DNA of 26,781 nucleotides from Betaproteobacteria bacterium (GTDB lineage: Bacteria > Pseudomonadota > Gammaproteobacteria > Burkholderiales > Burkholderiaceae_C). Numbering within the stretch: position 1 is the first letter of the stretch; each line of letters starts with the position of its first letter. The stretch spans positions 1 through 26,781 of the forward strand of contig VBDL01000058.1 of the NCBI GenBank assembly GCA_005884255.1, read 5' to 3'. Below, piece after piece: positions 1-17,300 of the stretch. The position numbers and the translations under genes are program-made. The notes beneath the pieces are model-generated. The model made no database searches. It saw only the letters and a program-made list of their open reading frames with translations, and was not told the origin of the DNA.

Positions 1-1540
1 CGTTGCCGATCCGCTTGCTCACGACCGTGTGGTACGGGGTCGCGTTGATGAAGACGATGGGCAGTTCATCGGTCACGATCTTTTGAAAGGCGGCGTAGTC
101 CGACTTGCGCTTGGCCGGATCGAGTTCGCTGCCCGCAGCGTTCAGCAACTGGTCGACCTTGGGGTTGCGGTACGACTGCGTGTTGGTCCAGACGAGCGGC
201 TTGATGTTGGTCGACAGGTAGGTGCGGGCCACGCCGATGACCGGGTCGCCCCAGTTGAAGACGCTGTCCATGGACATGTCGAAATCGTGCGTGGCCATTC
301 GCTTGGCCCATGCGGGAAAGTCCGCCGAGGCGCGCAGCTCGATCGTGATGCCGACCTTCTTGAGCTGCGAGCGCAGATATTCCGCAACGTTCTTCTGCTG
401 CTCATCGACACCAGGCAGGTAGTCCATCGTCAGCTTGAACCGTTCGCCGCCGGCACCCGCCTTGTAGCCCGCTGCATCCAGCATCGCCGTCGCCTTCTTC
501 AGGTCGAACGGATAGCGGACCAGGTCGTCCGATGCGAACGGACTACCCGCGATGATCGGCCCGTCCGCTGCAGCCGCAAAGCCGCCCATCATGGCCTTGG
601 TGATGAAGCTCTTGTCGATCGCGGTGGCGATGGCCTTGCGTACCACCACGTCTGACAAGGGCTTGCGGGTCAGGTTGAATGCCAGCCAGTTGAGGGCGCC
701 GGCACCTTCATAACCCTTGGCGAAGCGCATCAACTTCGGGTCGTTGCCGAGCCGCCGCAGGTCCGAGGCGCCCGATACGAACGGCAGCATCTGAATGTCG
801 CCGCGCTCCATGCCGAGCACCAGGCTGGCGTTGTCGGGCGTCACGCTGATGACCACCTTGTCCAGGTAGGGCTTGCCAGCAAGGAAGAACTTGTCGAAGC
901 GCTCCATCACGATGCGCTCGCCGGGCTTGAATTCGACCAGCTTGAACGGGCCCGAGCCGACCACGTCGGTGCTGTTGCGCGGGTGGGTCTTCAGGTCCTG
1001 GCCATCGCCGTAGATGTGCTTGGGTAGGATCGGGCACAGCGCCGGGCTCATCGCGAGCACGATCGCCGGGTGCGGCACGTTCATGCGGATGATCGCGGTG
1101 TGCGGGTCGGGCGTGTCGACCTTCTCGACCGGGCCCATCATGGTCGTGAACGGGTGGTTGGCCTTGATCGCCATGATCGAGAATGCCACGTCTTCCGAGG
1201 TGATCGGCTTGCCGTCGTGGAACACCGCGTTCTTGCGCAGGTTCAAGGTCAGGCTCTTGCCGTCGGAGGCGAGCTTCCAGCTTTCGGCGAGGTACGGCTG
1301 CGGGTTCCACTTGTCATCGAAGCGCAGCGGGCTGGCGAAAAGCTGGGCTCCCGGCATCGCGGTGGAGAATCCGGACTGCACCGCGCCGTTCAGGTTGCGG
1401 GCAACCTGGGTGCTGCCGACGACCAGGGTGCCGCCCGGTTTGATGGTCTGGCCTACTGCGTACGGCGCGGTCATGACCACCGATGCGAGCAGCATTGCAC
1501 CGATCAGCATGCGCCGACGACCAGGGCCTGAATTCATCAT
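1..1540 (-). CDS. ABC transporter substrate-binding protein, family 5 (Dpp/Opp type); paralog of 10601-12193; 3' end cut by the window edge
   Basis: Translated by hand because it is absent from the ORF track (no stop inside the window). GGAAGAGG SD, then ATG at 1540: MMNSGPGRRRMLIGAMLLASVVMTAPYAVGQTIKPGGTLVVGSTQ...PYLAESW...LRKNAVFHDGKPITSEDV...VGSGPFKL. Open down to base 2 and colinear with the 10.6-12.2 kb protein; about 18 aa are missing. Confidence 0.95.
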   Translation of the reverse strand, partial: MMNSGPGRRRMLIGAMLLASVVMTAPYAVGQTIKPGGTLVVGSTQVARNLNGAVQSGFSTAMPGAQLFASPLRFDDKWNPQPYLAESWKLASDGKSLTLNLRKNAVFHDGKPITSEDVAFSIMAIKANHPFTTMMGPVEKVDTPDPHTAIIRMNVPHPAIVLAMSPALCPILPKHIYGDGQDLKTHPRNSTDVVGSGPFKLVEFKPGERIVMERFDKFFLAGKPYLDKVVISVTPDNASLVLGMERGDIQMLPFVSGASDLRRLGNDPKLMRFAKGYEGAGALNWLAFNLTRKPLSDVVVRKAIATAIDKSFITKAMMGGFAAAADGPIIAGSPFASDDLVRYPFDLKKATAMLDAAGYKAGAGGERFKLTMDYLPGVDEQQKNVAEYLRSQLKKVGITIELRASADFPAWAKRMATHDFDMSMDSVFNWGDPVIGVARTYLSTNIKPLVWTNTQSYRNPKVDQLLNAAGSELDPAKRKSDYAAFQKIVTDELPIVFINATPYHTVVSKRIGN

Positions 1541-1665
1541 GTCGACCTCTTCCAAAGGCGCGGGGCGCGCGGATCGGCGGCCCTCCCGCAACGACCCTGT
1601 TCCCGCATACAGCCAACGATAGATGGCGCGGGCGCGTGCGGCCAGAGGATCGCAAGCCATAGAGG

Positions 1666-1685
1666 CCATAACAGTGGCGTTATGG
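1666..1685. promoter_or_regulatory. Perfect 7-bp inverted repeat CCATAAC-N6-GTTATGG; candidate operator upstream of the SBP paralog
   Basis: Seen directly. It lies about 55 bp upstream of a -10-like TATCGT (minus strand, 1616-1621). AT-rich stem with no U-tract, so it looks more like an operator than a terminator. Confidence 0.45.
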
Positions 1686-2622
1686 GCGGGCTCACGCGCC
1701 GGACTGGGCAGCGAGTTTGCGCGCGGCGCACAGCATCTCGTTGCGCAACCACACCAGCGCGCGGTGCTGGTGGGTTCGCTCATGCCAGACGAGCCGATAC
1801 CGCAGCGGCCCGACTTGAGCCGGGAACGGCAGCACAACGAGTGGGAACCGCGCTGCGACGCAGCGGCCGAAGAGGCTGCCCGTCGTCAACACCAGGTCGG
1901 ATTCGAGAAGCATCTCGGGCATGAGCCCGAAGTATTGGGTTCGCACCACCGTGTCCAGCGACACGCCGTGTCGGACCAGCAGGGTGTCGATCAGGTCGCC
2001 CGACTGCGTGGATTGCTCGAGGGCCGAAAGATGCCGGGCGCGCGCGTAGCTGTCGAGCGTCAGGCGCTCGCGCGTGAGTGGGTGGCCTTTGCGCACGATG
2101 CAGACAATGTCGTCATTGAGCAGCTTCGAGGCCCTGAAATGACCGGGCAGTTCCGGCCAGGCGACGATCGCGAGGTCGATGTCACCGTCGCTGAGCTGGC
2201 GCAGATACGCAGAGTCCTGTGGGATGCCGCGCCAGACGATGCGCGAACCCGGCGAGGCCCGCAGGACCCGACCGACCACATCGGCGTAGAAGGCGCTGGG
2301 CAGGAAGTCGTACGAGGCGACCCGAAAGTTGTGGCTCGCGGACTCCGGGGTGAACTCGCCGCCGCTGCGCGAGAGTTGCGACAGGTCGTTGAGGATTCTG
2401 CGTGTCGGCTCGGTCAGCGATTCGCCGCGCTGGGTCAGGACCATCCTGTTGCCGACGCGGACGAGCAGCTGGTCTCCGGTGAGTTCACGCAGCGCCTTGA
2501 GCTGGCGGCTCATCGCGGGCTGTTGGATGCCCAGCTTCAGCGCCGCGCGAGAAACCGCCGTCTCGGTGAGCAGCGCGTGCAGCGCCCGTATCAGCGCCTC
2601 GTCGAGCCGACGCGGCAAGTCG

Positions 2623-3586
<964 letters not shown>

Positions 3587-3605: not shown

Positions 3606-5197
3606 TCACGCGCCGCGCGCCTCGAAGACACGACCGGACAACACCGTGCCCCAGACTCGCGCGTCCTTCAGGCGCAGGGGGTCGAGGACGAGCGGGTCGT
3701 CGTCGAGCACGCAGAAGTCGGCGCGCTTGCCGCACTCGATGCTGCCGATCTCGTGGTCCAGCTTCAGCGTCCACGCCGCACCCAGGGTGATCGCGTGCAG
3801 CGCCTGCGGGACCGTCAGGCGTTCCGCTTCGCCCAGCACCCGCCCGGACGGCGTGATGCGGTTGACCGCGCACCAGGCGGTGAACAGCGGCCCGAGCGGC
3901 GTGACCGGCGCGTCGGAATGGATGGCGAGCGGCACGCCGGCGTCGAGTGCGCTGCGGCAGGCGTTGAGCCGCTGCGCGCGGTCGGGGCCCATGGTCATCT
4001 CCCAGTGCTGGTCGCCCCAGTACCAGAGGTGGTTGGCGAACAGGTTGACGCTCAGGCCCAGTGCCGCCATGCGGCGAAACATCGGCGCGTCGATCAGTCG
4101 AGCGCCACCTCGCTCGCCTCGTCGCCGTTGGTGTGGGTGTGGATGGTCAGGCCGGCGCGGTGGTAGGTTTCGAAGTCGGCCTCGAATTGCGCAGGTGCGG
4201 TGACCCAGATGCCGTTGTCCGCGCCGTTGAAGTAGCCGGGCCAGCGCAGGCGCGCCGAGAAGCCCTGGATCGACCCGTCGAGCATCAGCTTCACGAGGCC
4301 GTAGCGCAGGCGGTCGGTGTTGCGCTTCATCAGCGAACGCACATGCTCCGCGCCCTCCTGCGCGCCCAGCGGGCCGTGGAAGGCCTGGAACGCGGGCAGG
4401 ATGCGCACGCCGAAGCCGTCGTCGCTGCAGGCGCGCTCGAGCACCGCGCAGTCGTCCTCGGTCAGCTTGTTGACGAGGTCGGTGGCGGTGGTCACGCCCT
4501 GCAGGCAGGCAATCGATGCGAAGCCGCGCATGCCGGCATCGTCCATCGGCGCCAGCAGGCCGGCGTTGCCGATCTTGCGCATCACCGGGAACATCGCGGC
4601 CGGCTCCTGCAGTTCGCCGTTGGGCTCGCCGTTGGCGAACTTCACCACGCCCTCGATCTCGGTGTCGCGCGTGATGCCCGCCTCGCGCAGCATGGGGCGG
4701 TTGACGTTCATCAGGTGGCCGTTGGCATGCGCGATGACGATGGGCCGCGTGGCCGACGCGCGGTCGAGATGCTCGACCGTCATGCGTTCGCTGCCGAAGT
4801 AGATCGGGTCGAAGCCCCAGGCGATCAGCGGCTCGGAGGCCGGCTTGCCTTGCGCCGTCATCTGCGCGTCGATCTCGCGCAGGCGCGCCACCACCGCGTC
4901 CATCGAGCGCAGCCCCGGCCAGGTCCGGCCCTCGGGGTCGCGGCGGTCGAACCAGCCGAGGTAGGGCCAGACCCACATGCCGCCCTCCTTCAGGTGGCAA
5001 TGGCCTTCGACCAGGCCCGGCATCAGCACCTTGTCGGCGAAGCGCGCGTCGAGCTCGAAGGCGCCCCAGGCCTTCATGCGCTCCAGGTCGCCCACCGCGA
5101 GCACGCGGCCCTCGCGCACCGCGACGTGCGTGGCCTCGGGCTGCATGGGGTTCATCGTGATGATCTTGCGCGCCTGATAGACGGTGGTCGGGGTCAT
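3606..5197 (-). pseudogene. naaS: Amidohydrolase-3 (YtcJ-like) metal-dependent hydrolase, N-acetyltaurine amidohydrolase-like; internal deletion and frameshift near 4095
   Basis: Start at 5197: MTPTTVYQARKIITMNP...PGLVEGHCH...KLMLDGSIQG...HTNGDEASEVALD*. Continues in another frame as LIDAPMFRRM...HSDAPVTP...GSIECGKRADF. Sits next to COG0523 and LysR genes as in naa clusters. Symbol is contextual. Confidence 0.8.
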
Positions 5198-5346: not shown

Positions 5347-6549
5347 TCAGTCCAGCGCAGGCAGCTTGGCGCTGCCGTCGCGCGCGACGACGCGGCCGCG
5401 CTTGATGACCCAGCGCCGCAGCGGGTGCATGGCGACGGCCTCGGCGGCGTTCTCCGCCTGCACGACGACGAGGTCCGCGGCGCATCCCACGTCGAGACCG
5501 TAGCCCTCGGCGCCCATCACCTGTGCGCCGCCGTGCGTCGCCATCGTCAGCGCCAGCTCCAGCCCGGCATCGTCGCGAAAGCCGCTGAGGTAGGCCAGCA
5601 GATAGGCGCGCTCCAGCATGTCGCCGGTGTTGAGCGGGCTCCAGCAGTCGCGCACGCCGTCGGAGCCGGTGAACAGCCGCACGCCGCGCTCGGCCAGCAG
5701 CCGGATCGGCGGGAACGGGGTGCCGCCCGAGGGCGCGTGCGTCATCACGGCGATGTCGTTGTCGCGCAGCAGCGCGACGATGGCGTCCAGCCGCGCCGGC
5801 TCCAGCATGCCGAGGCAGAACGCATGGCTCAGCGCCACGCGGCCGGCGAGGCCCAGCGCGCGCGTGCGTTCGGCGATCATCTCGATCGTGGCCGCGCCGG
5901 TCTCGCCGCGGTCGTGCAGGTGGATGTCGATGCCGCAGCCGCGCCGCTCGGCGATCGCGAAGATGGCGTTGAGCTGGCCATGCGGGTCGTTGTCGACGCC
6001 GATCGGGTCCAGCCCGCCGATGACCTGCGCGCCGTCGAGCGCCGCCTGGTCCAGCAGGTCCAGCGTGCCCGGTTGGCGCATCACACCGGTCTGCGGAAAG
6101 GCGACGATCTGCACGTCGATGAACTCGCGGTGCGCCTCGCACATCGCCTGGACGCCGTGCAGGTGGGCGAGCTGCATGTCGGGCCCGACATCGACATGGG
6201 TGCGCACATGCGTCGTGCCGCGCGCCACCAGGTGGCGCAGCAGCCGCGCGCTCTGCCGCTGCGGTGACAGGCCCAGTTCGCCGAGCACGCGCCGCTCGTT
6301 GTCGATGCGCTCGAGCAGCGTGGGGCCGGCCCGGTGCGAATGCCACGGCGTGCCCCACAGGGTCTTGTCGAGATGCGCATGGCCGTCGACCAGGCCCGGC
6401 ATGACGAGGCAGCCGCGTGCCTCGAGCGTGTCGCTGCCGGCGTGCGCCGGCAGCTCGCGTCCGATGGCGGCGATGCGCCCGCCGGCGATCGCGATGTCGG
6501 CCACCGGTCCTTGCCACAGGCGCGCGCCGCGAACGATCAGCCCGTCCAT
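5347..6549 (-). CDS. Cytosine-deaminase (CodA)-like metal-dependent amidohydrolase/deaminase
   Basis: PGLVDGHAHLDKT (HxH), RTHVD, QIVAFPQ, HLHD, SHAFCLG and GSDGVRD motifs; 400 aa; appears intact. Confidence 0.88.
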   Translation of the reverse strand: MDGLIVRGARLWQGPVADIAIAGGRIAAIGRELPAHAGSDTLEARGCLVMPGLVDGHAHLDKTLWGTPWHSHRAGPTLLERIDNERRVLGELGLSPQRQSARLLRHLVARGTTHVRTHVDVGPDMQLAHLHGVQAMCEAHREFIDVQIVAFPQTGVMRQPGTLDLLDQAALDGAQVIGGLDPIGVDNDPHGQLNAIFAIAERRGCGIDIHLHDRGETGAATIEMIAERTRALGLAGRVALSHAFCLGMLEPARLDAIVALLRDNDIAVMTHAPSGGTPFPPIRLLAERGVRLFTGSDGVRDCWSPLNTGDMLERAYLLAYLSGFRDDAGLELALTMATHGGAQVMGAEGYGLDVGCAADLVVVQAENAAEAVAMHPLRRWVIKRGRVVARDGSAKLPALD

Positions 6550-6553
6550 GGCC

Positions 6554-7576
6554 TCAGGCGGCCAGTGCCGGCAGCAGCGGGCGCGCCACGCCGTCGACGA
6601 CGTCGATGCGGCGGCAGCGCACCCAGTGGCCGGGCTCGACTTCGCGCAGCGGCGGCAGCTCGGCCGAGCAGGCGGGCTCGGCCATCGGGCAGCGGCCGGC
6701 GAAGCGGCAGCCCGGCGGCGGCGCGATCGGGCTCGGCGGATCGCCCACCAGCCGGATGCGCTGCGCCGCGCGCATGCGCCCGCCCTTGACCGTCGGCACG
6801 GCCGACATCAGCGCGACGCTGTACGGATGCAGGGGCTGCGCGAAGAACACGCGGCGCGGCGCGCGCTCGACGATCTGGCCGAGGTACATCACGGCGATCT
6901 CGTCGCACAGGTGCTCCACCACCGCCATGTCGTGCGAGATGAACAGGTAGGTCAGCCCGAGCTCGCGCTGCAGCCGGGCGAGCAGGTTGAGGATCTGGGC
7001 GCGGATGGCCACATCGAGCGCCGACACCGGCTCGTCGCACACCACCAGCTCGGGGTGGGTCGCGAGGGCGCGTGCGATGTTGATGCGCTGGCGCTGCCCG
7101 CCGGAGAACTGGTGCGGGAACAGCTGGCGCTGCTCGGGGCGCAAGCCCACCGCGCAGAACAGCTCGGCGACACGCTCCTCGCGCTGCGCCGGCGTGCCGA
7201 TGGCCATCAGGTCCAGCGGCGCGCGCACCGTGTCGCCGGCGCGCTGGCGCGGGTTGAGCGAGGAGAACGGATCCTGGAACACGATCTGCACGCGGCGCCG
7301 CGCCTGCCGTAGCGCCTCGCCCTCGAGCTGGTCGAGCGCGGTGTCGCCGAGCCGGATGCTGCCCGACGTCACCGGCCCCAGGCGCATGACCGACAGCGCC
7401 GTGGTCGTCTTGCCGGAGCCCGACTCGCCGACGATGGCGAGCGTGCTGCCGCGCGCCACGTCGAAGGACACGCCGTCCACCGCCTTCACCACCTCGGGCG
7501 GGCGGAACCAGCCGGCGCCGGCGCGAGGGAAGTGCACCTTGAGGTCGCGCACCGACAACAAGTTCTGCGTGTTCAT
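6554..7576 (-). CDS. Dpp/Opp-type ABC ATP-binding subunit (DppF-like)
   Basis: [24 protein letters not shown] and a Cys-rich oligo_HPY tail. The family-like N-terminus starts at ATG 7576 ([12 protein letters not shown]); an alternative start is 7636. Confidence 0.95.
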
Positions 7577-7632
7577 TGGGCATCCTTCGTGCTGCGCACT
7601 CCGGAATTCGCACTTGGGGCGGCCCAGCGTGC

Positions 7633-7636
<4 letters not shown>
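7573..7636 (-). repeat. Short ATGA-bounded intergenic element (60-nt unit), in frame with the downstream ATPase
   Basis: ATGA-GCACGCTGGGCCGCCCCAAGTGCGAATTCCGGAGTGCGCAGCACGAAGGATGCCCA-ATGA. It resembles a small Burkholderiales repeat that I recall encoding MSxPGRPKGExRSAQHEG-like N-termini (recall, not searched). Confidence 0.5.
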
Positions 7637-8663
<1,027 letters not shown>

Positions 8664-8664
<1 letters not shown>

Positions 8665-9605
8665 CAGCGTTCCCTCAGCTTCGGATTCAGGGCGTCGTTC
8701 AATCCGTCGCCGATCAGGCTGACGGCGAGCACGGTGACGAAGATCGCCGCGCCGGGGAAGGCCACGGCCCACCAGGTGCTCAGCACGTACTGGCGGCTCG
8801 AGCCGATCATCAGCCCCCAGCTCATCTGGTTCGGGTCGCCCAGGCCGAGGAAGGACAGCCCCGCCTCGAACAGGATGGCGGCGCCCACCGCGAGCGTGGC
8901 CGACACGACCAGCGGCGGTAGCGCGTTGGGCAGGATGACTTTCCAGATCAGCCGGGCGTCGCGCGCGCCGATGCTGCGCTCGGCGCGCACGAACTCGAGG
9001 TCGCGAAAACGCATGAACTCGGCGCGCGTGAGTCGCGCGGTGCCGGTCCAGCTCACCACGCCGATCGCCAGCGTGACGGTGACGAGCGTCGGCGAGAACA
9101 GCGTAACGACGACCATCGCGAACAGCAGCGCCGGCAGCACCTGGAAGAACTCGGTCACGCGCATCAGCAGCTTGTCGACAGGCCCGCCGTAGAAGCCGGC
9201 CAGCGCGCCGACCGAGATGCCGATCAGCACCGACAGCAGGGCGGCCACCGCGCCGACGAGCAGCGTCGCGCGGCCGCCGTAGATCAGCGTGGTGAGCACG
9301 TCGCGGCCGAGGTAGTCGGTGCCGAGCCAGGCGTCCTCGTTCAGCGGCGGCGTCATTGGCGCGGCGCGGATCTCGAAGGGGTCGGCCGGGTACAGCCACG
9401 GACCGGCGATGGCGACGAGCAGCACGGCGGCCAGCATCAGCATGCCGGCGATCGCCGAGGGGTTGCGCGCGAACATGCGCAGCGCTTCGACGGTGGGGTT
9501 CTCGACCTTGACCGGAGGGGCAGGTTCGATGGCCGCAAGCGGCACGCCGGCGGGCACCGCGCGCAGCGGCGGCGTGCGACGGGGAATGGGCACAGGCTGG
9601 CTCAT
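8664..9605 (-). CDS. Dpp/Opp-type ABC permease (DppC-like)
   Basis: ATG 9605 in an ATGA overlap. LGTDYLGRD motif, EAA loop (FVRAERSIGA) and EAGLSFLGLG. Confidence 0.95.
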
Positions 9606-10579
9606 GATGTCTTGATCCGAGGATCGATCAGGCGATAGCACAGGTCGGTGAGCTGGTTCATCACGACGACGACGATCGACGAGAACAGCAGCACGCCCAG
9701 CACGCTCGGGTAGTCGCGGCGCAGCACCGCTTCGAAGGCGAGGCGGCCGAGACCCGGCCAGTTGAACACCGTCTCGACGAGGATCGCGCCGGCCATCACG
9801 TTGCCGAACTGCAGCCCGAGGATGGTGACCACCGGCAGCACCGCGTTGCGCAGCGCGTGCTTGTAGAGCACGACGCGGTTGGACAGCCCCTTGGCACGCG
9901 CGGTGCGGATGTAGTCGGCGCCCAGCACGTCGAGCATCGAGGCGCGCGCGAGGCGGCTGTACTGGGCCAGGTAGACGAGCCCCAGCGTCAGGGCGGGCAG
10001 CACCAGATGGTGCAGCACGTCGAGCATGTCGCGCGCGCCGCCGCCGCCGGTGGCATCGATCGATCGCAGGCCCGAGACCGGAAAGATCGGCCACACCGAG
10101 GCAAGCAGGATGACCAGCATGATCCCGGTCCAGAACACCGGTGCGGCGAAGCCCACCAGCGACAGCACGGTGATCGTCTGCGACAGCAGGCCGTTGGGCT
10201 TGCGGGCCGACAGCACGCCGAGCGTGGTGCCGATCACGAAGGCCGCGAGCACCGCGCTCACCACCAGCAGCAGAGTCGCCGGGATGCGCTCGGCGATGAG
10301 CCCGGCCACCGGCAGGTTGAAGAAGTACGAGAAGCCGAGGTCGCCCTGCACGATCTTCCCGAGATAGATGCCCAGCTGCACCGGCAGCGGCTGGTCCAGC
10401 CCGTACTGCGAGCGCAGTTGCGCTTTCAGCTCATCGCTCATGCCGCCGCTGGCGCCGGCGATGGTTTCCACCGGGTCGCCCGGCGCGGCATGCACCAGCA
10501 GGAAGTTGAGGACCACCACCGCCAGCACCAGGGCCAGACCCTGGAGCAGGCGCGACAGCAGCGTGCGTGTCATGTTCAT
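9602..10579 (-). CDS. Dpp/Opp-type ABC permease (DppB-like)
   Basis: HAAPGDP, YGLDQP, DYIRTARAKGL (EAA loop), VETVFNWPGLG and RRDYP motifs. Confidence 0.96.
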   Translation of the reverse strand: MNMTRTLLSRLLQGLALVLAVVVLNFLLVHAAPGDPVETIAGASGGMSDELKAQLRSQYGLDQPLPVQLGIYLGKIVQGDLGFSYFFNLPVAGLIAERIPATLLLVVSAVLAAFVIGTTLGVLSARKPNGLLSQTITVLSLVGFAAPVFWTGIMLVILLASVWPIFPVSGLRSIDATGGGGARDMLDVLHHLVLPALTLGLVYLAQYSRLARASMLDVLGADYIRTARAKGLSNRVVLYKHALRNAVLPVVTILGLQFGNVMAGAILVETVFNWPGLGRLAFEAVLRRDYPSVLGVLLFSSIVVVVMNQLTDLCYRLIDPRIKTS

Positions 10580-10600: not shown

Positions 10601-12193
10601 TTACTTGAAGTGGACCTCATCGTAGGGCGACATCGGGCCCCAGATCGAGGTCGGCACGTTGGCGAGCTTCTTGCTGGCCGCCGTGTGGTACGGGATCTGG
10701 TTGATGAAGACGATCGGCAGCTCGTCGGTCACCACCTTCTGGAACGTGGCGTAGTAGGCCTTGCGCTTGACCGGGTCGAGCAGGCCGCCGGCGGTGTTGA
10801 GCAGGTCGTCGATCTGCGGGTTGCTGTACGACTGGGTGTTCGTCCAGACGATGGGCTTGATGTTGGTCGACAGGTAGGTGCGGTGCACGCCGATCACCGG
10901 GTCGCCCCAGTTGAAGACCGAGTCCATCGACATGTCGAAGTCCTTCGTGGCCATGCGCTTGGCCCAGGCCGGGAAGTCGGCCGAGGTGCGCACCTCGACC
11001 GCGATGCCGACCTTCTTGAGCTGCGTGCGGATGTACTCCGCGACGGTCTTCTGCTGGTCGTCGGCGCCGGGCAGGTAGTCGATGCTCAGCTTGAAGCGCT
11101 CGCCGTTCGCGCCGGCCTTGTAGCCCGCCGCGTCGAGCAGCTCGACGGCCTTCTTCAGGTCGACCGGGTAGCGCACCAGGTCATTGACCGCGAACGGGCT
11201 GCTCGCGACGATAGGCCCGTCCGCCGGTTTGGCGAAGCCCGCCATCAGCGCCTTGCTGATGAAGTTCTTGTCGAGGGTGTGCGCGATGGCCTTGCGCACC
11301 TTGACGTCCGACAGCGGCTTCTTCGTCAAGTTGAACGCGAGCCAGTTCAACGCGCCGATGCCTTCGTAGCCGGCGGGCGTGAGCTGCACCTGCGGATTCT
11401 TCGCCAGCCGCTGCAGGTCGGTGGGCACCGAAGCGAAGGGCAGCATCTGCAGGTCGCCGCGCTCGAGGCTCAGCATCAGGCTCGAGGTGTCGGGCGTGAT
11501 GTTCATGATCAGCTTGTCGAGGTAGGGCCGGCCGGCGATGAAGAACTTGTCGAAGCGCTCCATGACAACACGCTGACCGGGCTTGAACTCGACCAGCCTG
11601 AACGGGCCGGACCCCACGACGTTGGTGCTGTTGCGCGGATGGCTCTTCAGGTCCTGCCCGTCGCCGTAGACATGCTTGGGCAGGATCGGGCACAGCGCGG
11701 GCGACATGGCCAGCACGATCGCCGGATGCGGCGTGCTCATGCGGATGATGGCCGTTTGCGCGTCGGGCGTCTCGACCTTCTCGACCGGGCCCAGCATCGT
11801 GGTGAAGGGGTGGTTCGCCTTGATCGCCATGATGGAGAACGCCACGTCCTCCGAGGTGATGGGCTTGCCGTCGTGGAACACCGCGCCACGGCGCAGGTTC
11901 AGCGTCAGCGACTTGCCGTCGGGCGCGAGCGACCAGCTCTCGGCCAGGTACGGCTGCGCGTTCCACTTGTCGTCGAAGCGCAGCGGGCTCGCGAAGAGCT
12001 GGGTGGATGGCAGCGCGGTGGCGATGCCCGACTGCACCGCGCCGTTGAGATGGCGCGGCGACTGCGTGCTGCCGAAGACCAGCGTGCCGCCGCGCTTGGG
12101 CTCCTCGGCGGCCGCCGGCCAGGCGATGGCGGCGGCGAGAAGGGCCATCGCGGCCAGCGCACGGCGCCGTGCGAAGGGCAGGGAAACAGGCAT
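10601..12193 (-). CDS. ABC substrate-binding protein, family 5 (NaaA-like position)
   Basis: GAGGAGA SD before ATG 12193, signal peptide (RRRALAAMALLAAAIAWPAAA), and PYLAESW, FHDGKPITSEDV, VGSGPF motifs. Confidence 0.95.
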   Translation of the reverse strand: MPVSLPFARRRALAAMALLAAAIAWPAAAEEPKRGGTLVFGSTQSPRHLNGAVQSGIATALPSTQLFASPLRFDDKWNAQPYLAESWSLAPDGKSLTLNLRRGAVFHDGKPITSEDVAFSIMAIKANHPFTTMLGPVEKVETPDAQTAIIRMSTPHPAIVLAMSPALCPILPKHVYGDGQDLKSHPRNSTNVVGSGPFRLVEFKPGQRVVMERFDKFFIAGRPYLDKLIMNITPDTSSLMLSLERGDLQMLPFASVPTDLQRLAKNPQVQLTPAGYEGIGALNWLAFNLTKKPLSDVKVRKAIAHTLDKNFISKALMAGFAKPADGPIVASSPFAVNDLVRYPVDLKKAVELLDAAGYKAGANGERFKLSIDYLPGADDQQKTVAEYIRTQLKKVGIAVEVRTSADFPAWAKRMATKDFDMSMDSVFNWGDPVIGVHRTYLSTNIKPIVWTNTQSYSNPQIDDLLNTAGGLLDPVKRKAYYATFQKVVTDELPIVFINQIPYHTAASKKLANVPTSIWGPMSPYDEVHFK

Positions 12194-12221
12194 CGAAGGT
12201 CTCCTCAACAACGTCGCCCCA

Positions 12222-12280
12222 ACGATAGGCAGACGCCGCCGCACGCCATAGGTCCACGCCTGCGCATTCGATGGAACCAG
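12222..12280 (-). promoter_or_regulatory. Predicted TauR-activated promoter of the Dpp/amidohydrolase operon
   Basis: CTGGTTCCAT (12280-12271) and GTGGACCTAT (12257-12248) are 23 bp apart; TATCGT at 12227-12222. Same geometry as the tauX and tauA promoters. Confidence 0.7.
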
Positions 12281-12332: not shown

Positions 12333-12650
12333 TCAGCGCGCCGCGCCGCTCGCCGTGGCCACGTAGGCGGCAATGGCCTGGATCTGCGCCTCCGACAGCG
12401 TGGCCTTGTACGACGGCATGTTGCCCAGGCCGTTGCGCAGCGCGTTGGCCACGCGGGCGGCATCCGGCTTCAGTTCGTCGAGCACCGGGCCGACCGCGCC
12501 CTCGCTGCCGGCGTCCTTCAGCGTATGGCACAGCGCGCAGGCGGGCGTGGCCTGTTGAAGGAAGAGCTTCCTGCCGAGCGCGAGCTCGTCGTCGGCATGG
12601 GCCGGCCGCACGACGAGCCCGGCCACCGCGAACAACAGGGCGTATTTCAT
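12333..12650 (-). CDS. sorB: Periplasmic monoheme cytochrome c, sulfite dehydrogenase subunit B
   Basis: ATGA-coupled to sorA. Signal peptide MKYALLFAVAG..., heme motif CALCH, distal Met in GNMP; 105 aa. Confidence 0.88.
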   Translation of the reverse strand: MKYALLFAVAGLVVRPAHADDELALGRKLFLQQATPACALCHTLKDAGSEGAVGPVLDELKPDAARVANALRNGLGNMPSYKATLSEAQIQAIAAYVATASGAAR

Positions 12651-13815
12651 GCGACGTTCACCTTCATCGCGTGATCGTCCCAACTGGTGTTGCTGTAGCC
12701 GCTGACGTTCTCGACGCGCAGCTCGGGCTGCACGTTGCCGGCCGCATCGGTGGCGCGGCTGGCGAGCGTGTGGCTGCCCGGCGGCAGCGTCGCATCGATG
12801 ACGAACTGGCGCCACGCGAAGGCCCCGAGGTCCGGCCCGAAGAAGCGCGCTTCGCGCCAGGTCCGGCCGCCGTCGACGGACACCTCGACCTTCTTCACCG
12901 CATGCACGCCGCCGAACGCCACGCCGTGGATCTGCACCGCCCCGGCGGCCAGCGTGCCACTGTCGGGATGCGGCGAATTGATCCACGACTTGACGCCCAT
13001 CTCCAGCACCGAGGGCTGGCTCGGGTCGGCCTTGCCGCCGGGCGGCGTGACGCGGTAGCCGTGCGACATGATCTTGGCGTCGGTCTCGGTGGCCGTGAAC
13101 GCCAGGCGCTTGATGTACTTGATGTTGTTCACGCCCTGGTAGCCGGGCACGATGAGCCGCAGCGGCCCGCCGTGCGCCAGCGTGAGCGGCGCGCCATTCA
13201 TCTCCCACACCAGCATCGCGTCGGCCAGCGCCTTCAGCGGCACCGAGCGCTCGACGATGATGCTCTTCGGGTCCACGCCCTCGGGCAGCTTCTCGCCGCC
13301 GGTGCCGGTGACGTAGAGCATGCCGTCGGCCACGCCGCCGAGCGATCGCGCCACCGTCTTCAGCGGCACGCCGCTCCACAGCACGCAGCCGGCGGCGCCC
13401 ACGCTCCACGGCGTGCCGCTCGGCTTGCTGGGGAAGAAGCCGCGGCCGTTGCCCGAGCACTGCAGCACGGTGGCCACCGTCTCCAGGCCCAGCGCCTTCA
13501 GCTCGCGCAGCGTGAGGCGGCGCGGCTGCTTGACGCCCTCGATCGCGATCTCCCAAGCGTCGCGGTCGGACAGGATGGAGGCGTCCGGCGCCGGCAGGTT
13601 GTTGCGCACGTAGAGCTGGTCGGACGGCGTGATCACGTTTCGAGCGTGCTCGCGCTATGCACGATCAGCGCGTTCGCGTCCTTCCACGAGGCGTAGGCCG
13701 GCAGCGGCTTGGCGGCGGCCTGTGCCGACGCATCGGTCCAGCGGCCGAGGCCGGCGGCGGCGAGCGCGCCGGCAGTGCCGGCCAGCAGGTGGCGGCGCTT
13801 CAGTGCAGGAGTCAC
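12647..13815 (-). pseudogene. sorA: Sulfite dehydrogenase molybdopterin subunit (sulfite oxidase family), frameshifted near 13635
   Basis: Tat signal MTPALKRRHLL... running to HSASTLET*. Continues in another frame as ITPSDQLYVRNN...LQCSGNGRG (Mo-binding Cys)...HGGPLRLIVPGY...KYIKR. Confidence 0.88.
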
Positions 13816-15230
13816 AGTCGTTCGTCCCTCAGGTGGTACCAGTGGTACAGCGCTCGCTGGCCCAGGCGCCGGAACGGCGCGAACGCGCGGCTCTCGACGA
13901 GGTTCAGCACGTTCGGGTACGGCAGCGGCGAGTTGTAGATCGGCAGCTCGAAGGCCTTGTCGTGCCGGCCGGCGATGCGCTGCGCCATGCGCCGCCCCGC
14001 ATGCGCCGAGAACGACACGCCGTTGCCGCCGTAGCCCAGCGCGTAGAACACCGATTGCTTCGCATCAGGCTGAAACACGCGCGGCATCATGTCGTGGCTC
14101 ACGTCGACCCAGCCCCACCAGGAGTGGTCGATGGCGATGCCTTTGAGCGCCGGGAACTTGCGGTGCAGGCCGTCGACCAGCACCTGCATGTGGCGCGGGT
14201 TGGGCGCGTCGGCGCCGGTGATCGAGCTGCGGCTGCCGATCTGCACGCGGTTGTCGGGCAGCTTGCGGTAGTAGAAGCGCAGCGTGCGCGTGTCGGTGAT
14301 GAAGATGCTGGTGCGGAAATTGGTCGCCGCGAGTTCGTCGTCGGTGAGCGGCCGCGTCACGAGCGAGTTCGACAGGATCGGCATGATCTTCGAGTCGAGG
14401 CTCGGGTGCAGCCCGTTGCTCGTGTAGCCGCCGGTGGCGAAGCCGACCGCGCGGGCGCGCACGATGCCGCCGGGGGTCTTCAGGTAGTGCACGCCGTTGC
14501 GCGTCTCGAAGCCGGTCACCGGGCTCGCCGGATGCACGCGCACGCCGAGCTCGCGCGCGCGGCGCAGGTAGCCGTGCGCGAGCTTCAGCGGGTGCACGCC
14601 CACGCCGTCGGGCTCCAGCAGCGCGCCGCAGGCCTCGGCCTCGCTCACGTAGTCGCGCCGCAGCTCCTGCGCGCTGAGCATGCGCGTGTCGTAGCCGAAC
14701 ACCTCGCGCATGACCTTCGCTTCGTTGCGCAGGAAGTCCATCTTCTTCTCGCGGTGCGCCACGTAGAGGTGGCCACCGGGCTGCGCGTCGCAGGGGAACT
14801 CGGCGACCAGGCTCTTGAAGGTCTCATAGCCCTGGCGGATCTCGGCGTCGAGCTTGAGCGCCGTCTCGCGGCCCCAGCGGGCTATCCACTGCGAGCGGTA
14901 AAGCCGCCCGCTCGCGTTCTGGCCCTGGCCGCCGTTGCGGCTGGTGCAGCCCCAGATGCTGCGGTTGGCCTCCAGCACGGTGGCGCGGATGCCGTGCTCG
15001 CGTGCGAGGAACAGCGCGGTGGCGAGCCCCGTGAAGCCGGAGCCGACGATCACCACGTCGGCGTCGATGTCGTGCGTGATCGGGCCGTCGTCCTCGGGCG
15101 GCGTGCCCGCGCTCGCCACCCAGTAGGTGGGCGCGTAGTCGTGGCCGCGGCCGGGGTGGGGTGCGACCAGCGGGTCGTAGCGCGGGTCGTAGTCGGCGAT
15201 CGGGGTCAGGTGGCGGCGCGCGATGTCCAT
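13812..15230 (-). CDS. tauY: Taurine dehydrogenase large subunit (DAO-family FAD oxidoreductase)
   Basis: VIVGSGFTGL FAD motif, TSRNGGQ, YALGYGGNGV; 472 aa; adjacent to an NTF2-like gene and tauR. Confidence 0.85.
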   Translation of the reverse strand: MDIARRHLTPIADYDPRYDPLVAPHPGRGHDYAPTYWVASAGTPPEDDGPITHDIDADVVIVGSGFTGLATALFLAREHGIRATVLEANRSIWGCTSRNGGQGQNASGRLYRSQWIARWGRETALKLDAEIRQGYETFKSLVAEFPCDAQPGGHLYVAHREKKMDFLRNEAKVMREVFGYDTRMLSAQELRRDYVSEAEACGALLEPDGVGVHPLKLAHGYLRRARELGVRVHPASPVTGFETRNGVHYLKTPGGIVRARAVGFATGGYTSNGLHPSLDSKIMPILSNSLVTRPLTDDELAATNFRTSIFITDTRTLRFYYRKLPDNRVQIGSRSSITGADAPNPRHMQVLVDGLHRKFPALKGIAIDHSWWGWVDVSHDMMPRVFQPDAKQSVFYALGYGGNGVSFSAHAGRRMAQRIAGRHDKAFELPIYNSPLPYPNVLNLVESRAFAPFRRLGQRALYHWYHLRDERL

Positions 15231-15234
15231 GGCA

Positions 15235-15618
15235 TCAATCCTTCAGGGCCGGGCGGTCCTTGCGGAACGCGTTCTTCACTGCGATGCGGCCGTCGCGGAA
15301 GGTGAACAGGTCGCAGCCGTCGGCCTCGACGCGCGTGCCGTCGGCCTTGGTGCCGGTGAACGTCCATTCCGACACGCCAAGGTCGCCGTGCACGAAGTGG
15401 CGGCCGTTGCGCCATTGCGCGTCGGGGAAGCTGGCCCAGGCCTGCGCGAAGGCGGCGCGCACGGCCTCGCGGCCGGCATGGCGCGTGCCGCAGCGCTCGG
15501 GGCCGGCGGCGCTCTGGAACACGCAATCGTCGGTCATGAACGACATCAGCGCGTCGATGTCGTGGCGGTTCCAGGCGTCGGTGAAGGCTTGAAGGAAGTC
15601 GGCGTCGATCGCGGGCAT
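15235..15618 (-). CDS. tauX: Taurine dehydrogenase small subunit (NTF2/SnoaL-like fold)
   Basis: AWNRHDIDALMSFMTDDCVF...SEWTFTGT...GCDLFTFRDGRIAVKNAFRKDRP; 127 aa; directly upstream of tauY. Confidence 0.85.
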   Translation of the reverse strand: MPAIDADFLQAFTDAWNRHDIDALMSFMTDDCVFQSAAGPERCGTRHAGREAVRAAFAQAWASFPDAQWRNGRHFVHGDLGVSEWTFTGTKADGTRVEADGCDLFTFRDGRIAVKNAFRKDRPALKD

Positions 15619-15645: not shown

Positions 15646-15704
15646 AGCGTAGGAGCTGCGCGCAGCGGGCCGTAGCGCCAGATGCCCGGATTCGGTAGAG
15701 CCAG
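15646..15704 (-). promoter_or_regulatory. Predicted TauR-activated promoter of tauXY-sorAB
   Basis: CTGGCTCTAC (15704-15695) and CTGGCGCTAC (15681-15672) are 23 bp apart; TACGCT at 15651-15646. Confidence 0.78.
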
Positions 15705-15714
15705 TCGGCCGCCG

Positions 15715-17211
<1,497 letters not shown>

Positions 17212-17241: not shown

Positions 17242-17300
17242 TTGGTCTCAGTGAAACCCGGGAACTGGCACTACAGCCAAAGAAGAGGGCCGCCCACACT
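17242..17300 (+). promoter_or_regulatory. Predicted TauR-activated promoter of tauABC; overlaps the divergent tauR upstream region
   Basis: TTGGTCTCAG (17242) and CTGGCACTAC (17265) are 23 bp apart; CACACT at 17295-17300. Confidence 0.72.

Follow-up and report, generated by a model that had tools for sequence, protein, structure and literature searches.

An AtzC/CodA-branch amidohydrolase gene within a predicted TauR-controlled naa-type operon of a Betaproteobacteria bacterium

Gene content and predicted control of the locus

We analysed a gene, here called X (positions 5347-6549), that lies within a naa-type operon of a Betaproteobacteria bacterium (NCBI GenBank assembly GCA_005884255.1, contig VBDL01000058.1). 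The window, the whole stretch of DNA analysed, is the entire 26.8-kb contig (~70% G+C) and comes from a metagenome-assembled genome (MAG) that is 77% complete. It holds a full naa set in one cluster, comprising a five-component Dpp-type ATP-binding cassette (ABC) system, a NaaS-like amidohydrolase assigned by family to COG1574/PF07969, a NaaT-like COG0523 protein and a NaaR-like LysR regulator, and the gene order on the minus strand is naaABB'CC'-X-ydcZ remnant-naaS-naaT-naaR. A tauX-tauY-sulfite dehydrogenase-cytochrome c block (12333..15618) is located directly upstream of the naa genes on the same strand, and tauABC and tauE are divergent from tauR. Gene pickers based on GC3 and on GC1-GC2 missed known genes of the window at ~70% G+C and were dropped. 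Genes in related loci were found by tblastn with the window proteins together with a search for the contigs encoding them, and the L-numbers used below (L002, L015 and so on) are labels of the loci and contigs compared. The features of the window are as follows.

5347..6549, minus strand: X, mononuclear amidohydrolase of the AtzC/CodA branch, 400 amino acids (aa), NCBIfam NF004636 (profile and structure comparison)
6554..7636, minus strand: naaC'-like DppF-type ABC ATPase (domain match; 78-86% identity in syntenic loci)
7633..8664, minus strand: naaC-like ABC ATPase, DppD-type
8664..9605, minus strand: naaB'-like permease, DppC-type
9602..10579, minus strand: naaB-like permease, DppB-type
10601..12244, minus strand: naaA-like family-5 solute-binding protein, true start probably the ATG near 12193
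12248..12280, minus strand: TauR-type direct-repeat pair, CTGGTTCCAT, 13 nucleotides (nt), GTGGACCTAT, 5' of naaA
5220..5342, minus strand: remnant of a DMT_YdcZ (DUF606) membrane-protein gene, final ~34-40 codons
3606..5197, minus strand: NaaS-like COG1574 amidohydrolase, broken in this assembly
2623..3586, minus strand: naaT-like COG0523/CobW GTPase metallochaperone, with a small frame break at ~3495-3505
1692..2654, minus strand: naaR-like LysR regulator
2-1783, minus strand: second family-5 solute-binding protein, after the LysR gene, running off the contig end
12333-12650, minus strand: cytochrome c of the SorT-type dehydrogenase
12647-13636, minus strand: SorT-type sulfite dehydrogenase
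13812-15230, minus strand: tauY (DAO)
15235-15618, minus strand: tauX (SnoaL)
15672..15704, minus strand: TauR-type repeat pair 5' of tauX
15715..17211, minus strand: tauR, MocR-type regulator (GntR plus aminotransferase fold)
17242..17274, plus strand: TauR-type repeat pair 5' of tauA, in the tauR-tauA divergent region

The first-pass annotation had placed X in a predicted TauR-controlled operon, and the distribution of TauR-type repeats bears this out. Using the pattern YTGGnnYnAn, 13 nt, YTGGnnYnAn (box starts 23 nt apart), we found exactly three box pairs in the window, 5' of tauA, tauX and naaA, compared with 0.045 expected in shuffles. The pair 5' of naaA is conserved in relatives: it is also present in nine other loci (L002, L003, L008, L012, L038, L096, L097, L102 and L104) and in 8/8 of the X-bearing loci with a readable naaA upstream region. 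The same two-box pattern gave no pairs near X homologues that lie outside naa clusters. A search with the Rhodobacter TauR consensus CTGGACYTAA, allowing two mismatches, was too noisy to use (25 hits versus 10.6 expected, mostly intragenic). No terminator-like site was found within the minus-strand run of the window, and we infer from these sequence features that X is co-transcribed from the naaA promoter with its predicted TauR boxes.

The described naa clusters of Cupriavidus necator H16 and Ruegeria pomeroyi DSS-3 have the same ABC, COG1574, COG0523 and LysR parts as the window but carry neither an AtzC/CodA-like gene nor ydcZ, whereas the window has X and the ydcZ remnant; the R. pomeroyi cluster reads naaT-S-R-ABB'CC' (PMC4334477). 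The predicted Comamonadaceae TauR regulon (Suvorova and Rodionov 2016, RegPrecise) consists of tauABC, tauXY, an OppABCDF-type transporter, COG1574 and COG523. In Verminephrobacter and Delftia the TauR regulons include the Opp-type transporter, COG1574 and COG523 and no CodA/AtzC-type gene, and PF07366 is called TauX in the supplement of the same study (PMC5320631). The regulogs of these two genera likewise list no COG0402-type amidohydrolase, making X an addition in another sub-lineage. The earlier statement that known naa clusters do without such an enzyme is therefore in keeping with both published sets. The naa + X operon variant appears undescribed in the literature searched, and searches on DUF606/YdcZ and on taurine with cytosine deaminase returned nothing concerning X. 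Two preprints on metal-dependent bile-salt hydrolases were set aside, as they relate to the COG1574/NfdA-like family of the NaaS-like neighbour and not to X.

Family, fold and active site of X

X has an open frame of 400 aa with an ATG start behind GAGG. It begins 4 nt past the stop of the DppF-type ATPase gene (6554-7636) and lies upstream of the COG1574/NaaS-like gene (5197-3606). The protein carries the motifs VDGH57AH59LDK, IDIH210LH212D213, LSH242AF and GSD297G, and the residues H57/H59, H210, H242 and D297, together with the barrel of the AlphaFold model (predicted local distance difference test score, pLDDT, 93.4), place it among the mononuclear subtype III amidohydrolases. Reading frame, motifs and neighbours all agree with the intact enzyme noted on first inspection, with HxH, HLHD, SH and D motifs, between an ABC ATPase and a NaaS-like gene. 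Pfam matches were to Amidohydro_3 (2.5e-34) and Amidohydro_1 (1.7e-17), and X passed the NCBIfam model NF004636 (PRK05985) with 505.8 bits against a cut-off of 408, over profile positions 5-394 of 398. This family has more than 3,500 database relatives and a solved structure. Among solved structures the relatives of X by phmmer are 6nbo (4.9e-102), AtzC (5e-54) and CodA (1e-36), and the TM-scores of the model follow the same order (0.95-0.97 to 6NBO, 0.92 to AtzC and 0.83-0.85 to CodA); HutI and the cog1228 dipeptidases are distant structural matches. By family and fold X thus falls in the AtzC/CodA branch, in line with the initial assignment to a fold that hydrolyses amidine or amine substituents.

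The closest solved structure, 6NBO from Burkholderia multivorans ATCC 17616 (45% identity to X by Foldseek), most likely belongs to the same family. It was deposited as 'N-isopropylammelide isopropylaminohydrolase', comes from another genomic context and has HLHE in place of the HLHD of X. Because it is a structural-genomics entry for which we found no paper in the literature searched, it brings no functional information.

AtzC of Pseudomonas sp. ADP (PDB 2QT3/4CQB), the N-isopropylammelide isopropylaminohydrolase, frees an alkylamine from an amidine-type ring carbon and is like X in fold, metal ligands and the H-x-H-D after strand 5. In AtzC the second His of this motif, His219, occupies the spatial place of CodA Glu217, and the site is further shaped by Lys65, Gln160, Asp188, His249 and Trp309 (PMC4577212). 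X carries the equivalents of all of these: H212, which corresponds to the AtzC proton donor His219, and K62, Q153, D181, H242 and W303. The two enzymes differ in that they share only 31% identity, the lid loop of X after strand 1 (LWGTPWHxHxAGP) is family-specific, and AtzC Asn304, which hydrogen-bonds the ammelide ring carbonyl/NH, is replaced by Gly298, a glycine invariant in 27 aligned sequences. AtzC is also a recently recruited xenobiotic enzyme encoded on a catabolic plasmid, whereas X is a taurine-operon gene. As the AtzC site residues are all present and only Asn304 is replaced, X is AtzC-like rather than CodA-like.

The comparison with CodA also bears on whether X could be a deaminase of cytosine, isoguanine or creatinine that serves nitrogen salvage and came to lie in the operon by chance. 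X is 29% identical to E. coli CodA over the full length (BLASTP), both are of subtype III with HxH/His/His/Asp ligands, the equivalents of CodA Q156, H246 and W319 are kept, and homologues of X are publicly annotated as 'cytosine deaminase'. However, BLASTP pairs H210/L211/H212/D213 of X with H214/C215/D216/E217 of CodA, so that Glu217 is aligned to Asp213 while its spatial role is taken in X, as in AtzC, by His212; in the same alignment CodA Asp314 is replaced by the family-invariant Gly298 and Thr66 by Lys62. X also scores far under the cut-offs of all three NCBIfam cytosine-deaminase models (208.9/438 bits for NF005748, 146.2/483 for NF006685 and 111.5/403 for NF005759), and wild-type AtzC, which has the HxH in common with X, does not deaminate cytosine (PMC12828455). 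A salvage deaminase of this kind is quite improbable. The first-pass annotation had drawn attention to an Asp at the position of the glutamate in the CodA HCDE motif. D213 does align with E217, but it is no distinguishing feature, since Asp and Glu alternate at this position across the family, both inside and outside the clade of naa-linked copies described below: HLHD is found in 118/120 of the closest homologues, and HLHE in the syntenic orthologues of L002-L005, L031, L032 and L038-L041. Asp213 was rejected as a sign of changed mechanism for this reason.

A 2025 study of the CodA cluster reports that its substrates must have a C=N in conjugation with an exocyclic carbonyl, stabilised by a conserved Gln, and that the leaving groups are ammonia, alkylamines or chloride (PMC12828455). 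For X we propose a mechanism in which the metal on H57, H59, H210 and D297 would hold a hydroxide oriented by H242 and D297, and this hydroxide would attack a carbonyl-conjugated C=N at its sp2 carbon. Q153 would stabilise the oxyanion, W303 would stack on the planar substrate, and a proton would be shuttled by H212, backed by D181 and D213, with ammonia or an alkylamine as the leaving group. The enzyme class is well supported by these comparisons, and so is the type of reaction, in which, as with AtzC, an amino or alkylamino group would be displaced hydrolytically from an amidine-type carbon.

Recurrence and origin of the naa + X arrangement

At least 17 further loci, drawn from collections of genomes and metagenomes, share the order naaABB'CC'-X-(ydcZ)-naaS-naaT. 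Carriers include the isolate Comamonas granuli (L097), an Ideonella MAG (L096) and an Azohydromonas MAG, and some of the loci also hold tauR-tauXY-sorAB and xsc-pta. A single-protein search of genome contigs gave only six loci, and an alignment-based scan of metagenome contigs was used. Among 400 sampled genomes of the window's order no X homologue exceeded 49% identity, the close relatives being in lineages missed by even sampling; twelve of these genomes have a NaaS-like gene, and in 0/12 is X beside it. The plasmid collection contained relatives of X only below 51% identity.

In a tree of X, the naa-context copies all fall in one clade (Shimodaira-Hasegawa-like approximate likelihood ratio test, SH-aLRT, 94) with one escape, a lineage in which X-ydcZ-TctC stands elsewhere in the genome, outside any naa cluster. 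The NaaS tree likewise groups 15/16 X-bearing clusters in one clade (support 100), with a TauR-linked naa cluster that lacks X, from the window's own taxonomic family, unresolved at the clade base. Copies of X in the naa-clade diverge down to 59% identity and span several genera, and canonical naa operons with component identities of 60-84% are without X. Homologues of X therefore do occur together with tau and naa genes, and in a dedicated clade, which removes one of the grounds on which the first-pass annotation would have been abandoned. The ydcZ gene is whole (~150 aa) in L002-L005, L012, L016, L032 and L096, truncated in both the window and L015, and absent in L008, L097 and L038, where X is kept. 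Judged from these sequences, the simplest history would be that an X-ydcZ cassette was inserted once between naaC' and naaS and was co-inherited from then on, with ydcZ lost later in several lines and X kept. As the association would go back to a single insertion, the naa + X loci are not independent.

To what extent the locus is decaying can be judged from L015, an independent metagenome contig 99% identical to the window. The two copies of X differ by 10 nt, of which seven changes are synonymous and three residue-changing, pointing to purifying selection on X. The NaaS-like gene of the window has lost 67 nt at a 12-nt direct repeat (4085-4096), which takes out a His-rich ...AIERVLARHPRPDHRHTLQHGQMID segment and shifts the frame. 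Because this gene is whole in L015 (552 aa), the damage is confined to this assembly or strain. Since X is intact, appears to be under purifying selection and stands beside a naaS lesion missing from L015, it is not part of a decaying pseudogene field, and that explanation was rejected.

Other differences and breaks were seen in neighbouring genes. The gene for the SorT-type sulfite dehydrogenase has a small frame break in its 5' part at ~13640 (~13600-13740), with the N-terminal ~75 residues in another frame. At the overlap of the naaC 3' and naaC' 5' ends, window positions 7612-7630 show three 1-nt indels in 18 nt relative to L015, resulting in a short local frame difference between otherwise 99% identical assemblies. 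With several breaks on a single MAG contig, errors of assembly or consensus may be the cause.

The gene content around X also varies among the related loci. L002 (11689-15010) has two tandem NaaS-like paralogues with ~55% mutual identity, judged against the N-terminal fragment of the window NaaS, and the Ideonella locus L096 (10676-12319) has kept only the second paralogue type. As L002 has both types and L096 the second alone, the amidohydrolase partner of X varies by paralogue. In L012 (871-2445 and 12673-14292) a TauR-type box pair is found 5' of a small open reading frame and a carbamoylase-family gene, directly upstream of naaA; the carbamoylase-family gene belongs to the allantoate-amidohydrolase/N-carbamoylase family NF006769 (600 bits). 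A choline-dehydrogenase-like GMC oxidoreductase gene adjoins tauY in the same locus. The second solute-binding protein of the window (2-1783) is ~75% identical to the naaA-like one and has no TauR box pair 5' of it; it could broaden the substrate range of a single transporter.

Substrate and role of X

The active site of X is conserved well beyond the naa clusters. Twenty-two putative active-site positions are identical, save three singleton changes, in 41 sequences of at least 58% identity, and down to 47% identity they are nearly so. The naa-clade differs from its sister clades at only five positions (G/A56, R/K81, D/E167, R/H203 and A/H286). These are peripheral and mostly conservative, and positions 203 and 286, by the secondary structure of the model, immediately precede strands 5 and 8, on the opposite side from the active site. 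None of the five is a naa-clade-specific cationic or hydrogen-bonding substitution fit for a sulfonate site, and a sulfonate-binding adaptation in the naa-clade was rejected for lack of a candidate substitution.

Sister copies of X (69-74% identity) are located beside ATZ/TRZ-like deaminases, TctC binding proteins, GntR-FCD regulators, a flavin reductase or a nitroreductase. A 'HutI-like' label for the partner enzyme in Polaromonas was discarded, as NCBIfam models point to ATZ/TRZ-type and 5'-deoxyadenosine-type deaminases, below cut-offs. Three genomes that carry sister copies, those of Polaromonas glacialis and of two Thalassobaculum, yielded no xsc at E<=1e-100, and their tauY matches are missing or reach only 36-38% identity; both xsc and tauY are present in Comamonas granuli. 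A cluster under GntR control on a plasmid of Leisingera methylohalidivorans (NC_023146.1, 195980-211155; L098) includes a relative of X with 49% identity. Besides this relative it encodes two ATZ/TRZ-type amidohydrolases, a flavin reductase, a Dpp-type ABC system, an NCS1 permease and a member of the Asp/Glu-racemase family, a set typical of N-heterocycle catabolism that looks like a deamination pathway of several steps. A trio of an MFS transporter, a GntR-FCD regulator and an Asp/Glu-racemase-family gene flanks both the Polaromonas glacialis locus outside naa (L013) and the naa + X locus of Comamonas granuli.

These contexts also speak to a quite different activity, in which X would not be a deaminase but would cleave the amide of a dipeptide-like import such as aminoacyl- or gamma-glutamyl-taurine. 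Members of the X family are very often found beside Dpp/Opp-type ABC systems, an MlrC-like peptidase adjoins the Thalassobaculum copy, and some subtype III relatives (HutI and the cog1228 dipeptidases) cut amides. The closest characterised relatives are nevertheless AtzC and CodA, the conserved Gln/Trp/His set is one for planar C=N substrates, and the partners of X elsewhere are ATZ/TRZ-type deaminases rather than peptidases, leaving amide cleavage very improbable.

Because family members in unrelated contexts have an active site that cannot be told from that of X, a substrate common to the family is likelier than a taurine-specific one. In the explanation that we favour, to which we would give about an even chance, X would be a working cytoplasmic mononuclear-metal aminohydrolase of the AtzC/CodA branch. 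With similarly balanced confidence, we take its substrate to be a family-wide, non-taurine N-heterocycle or acyl-amidine and X to be a co-expressed accessory. The substrate core common to NF004636 would be an amino- or alkylamino-substituted oxo-N-heterocycle or an acyl-amidine, probably anionic. X and the ydcZ membrane gene would have entered a naa-type operon once, between naaC' and naaS, and since then the naaA promoter with its TauR boxes would have driven transcription of X, which would have been held under purifying selection even where ydcZ decayed, as an accessory co-expressed with taurine-conjugate catabolism and not a required step.

Several observations weigh against a family-wide substrate. 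X has been kept inside a TauR-box operon over the whole divergence of the clade (down to 59% identity, in several genera), it is close-coupled to naaC' by the 4-nt gap, and it is retained where its presumed first partner ydcZ is lost or truncated (the window, L015, L008, L097 and L038), a pattern of retention that suggests that X is useful specifically during the use of taurine conjugates. AtzC-type enzymes can free alkylamines, and taurine is an alkylamine. The 'common substrate' of NF004636 is, moreover, itself hypothetical.

The first-pass annotation had proposed that X acts, upstream of the amidohydrolase, on a nitrogen-rich taurine derivative. Membership of a TauR-box operon does recur, as that proposal would have it, but the same active site is found elsewhere and the recurrence traces to a single insertion. 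In the broader form of this proposal, which we regard as a tentative possibility, the substrate of X would be an amidine, acylguanidine or N-heteroaryl compound that carries taurine and enters the cell through the NaaA-type ABC system. Taurine could be freed directly, as AtzC frees isopropylamine, or the compound could be deiminated to an N-acyl or N-carbamoyl taurine for cleavage by NaaS or a carbamoylase, and X would provide a second entry route into TauXY-Xsc catabolism. The acceptance of alkylamine leaving groups by CodA-cluster enzymes (PMC12828455) argues for such chemistry, and a taurine-substituted oxo-heterocycle or acylguanidine would meet the rule of a carbonyl-conjugated C=N. The TauR repeats in every X-bearing locus with a readable naaA upstream region, the gene order shared by at least 17 further loci including that of an isolate, and the persistence of X after loss of ydcZ are also consistent with a taurine substrate, as is the TauR-box-preceded NF006769 gene just upstream of naaA in L012, and the two NaaS paralogues of L002 and the two binding proteins of the window hint at more than one substrate. 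This evidence is offset by the lack of independence among the loci, by the identical active site in sister clades whose genomes lack xsc or a close tauY, and by the absence from the naa-clade of a specific substitution suited to a sulfonate. No such natural taurine derivative turned up in literature searches, and we know of no natural taurine-bearing amidine, acylguanidine or N-heteroaryl compound.

The example put forward at first was taurocyamine (guanidinoethanesulfonate), which X would convert to N-carbamoyltaurine and the NaaS-like enzyme then to taurine. The order of X then naaS would suit such a route, as would the carbamoylase-family gene adjoining the cluster in L012, and the two-step deiminase-deacylase routes of the HutF/HutG type offer an analogy. 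To our knowledge, however, the known guanidino-group hydrolases belong to other superfamilies, and the active site of X is unchanged in non-taurine contexts. The proposal is further weakened in that taurocyamine has no carbonyl conjugated to its C=N, as CodA-cluster substrates are reported to need (PMC12828455), a rule that N-acyl taurines do not fit either, and we consider this route quite improbable.

Overall, these results indicate that X marks a real operon variant with a well-supported mechanism class, for which a taurine-specific new reaction is possible. In soil, in freshwater and in the sea, taurine and N-acetyltaurine serve as major organosulfonate currencies, and few bacterial routes of entry are known, namely TauABC, NaaS, bile-salt hydrolases and the recently discovered metal-dependent amidases specific for taurine. 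An AtzC/CodA-branch hydrolase stably wired into a TauR-controlled naa operon in several genera could flag a further taurine conjugate, or a nitrogen-rich co-substrate harvested with taurine. There is a limited likelihood that X catalyses an undescribed organosulfonate step, the C-N hydrolysis of a natural taurine-substituted amidine, acylguanidine or N-heterocycle; if true, this would uncover environmental taurine conjugates of a new class on which Burkholderiales in soil and freshwater draw. If X is instead a generic heterocycle deaminase, it would be an ordinary case of a gene cassette lodged in a catabolic operon. Whatever the link to taurine, the operon context and the cultured carrier Comamonas granuli provide a handle on the function of NF004636.

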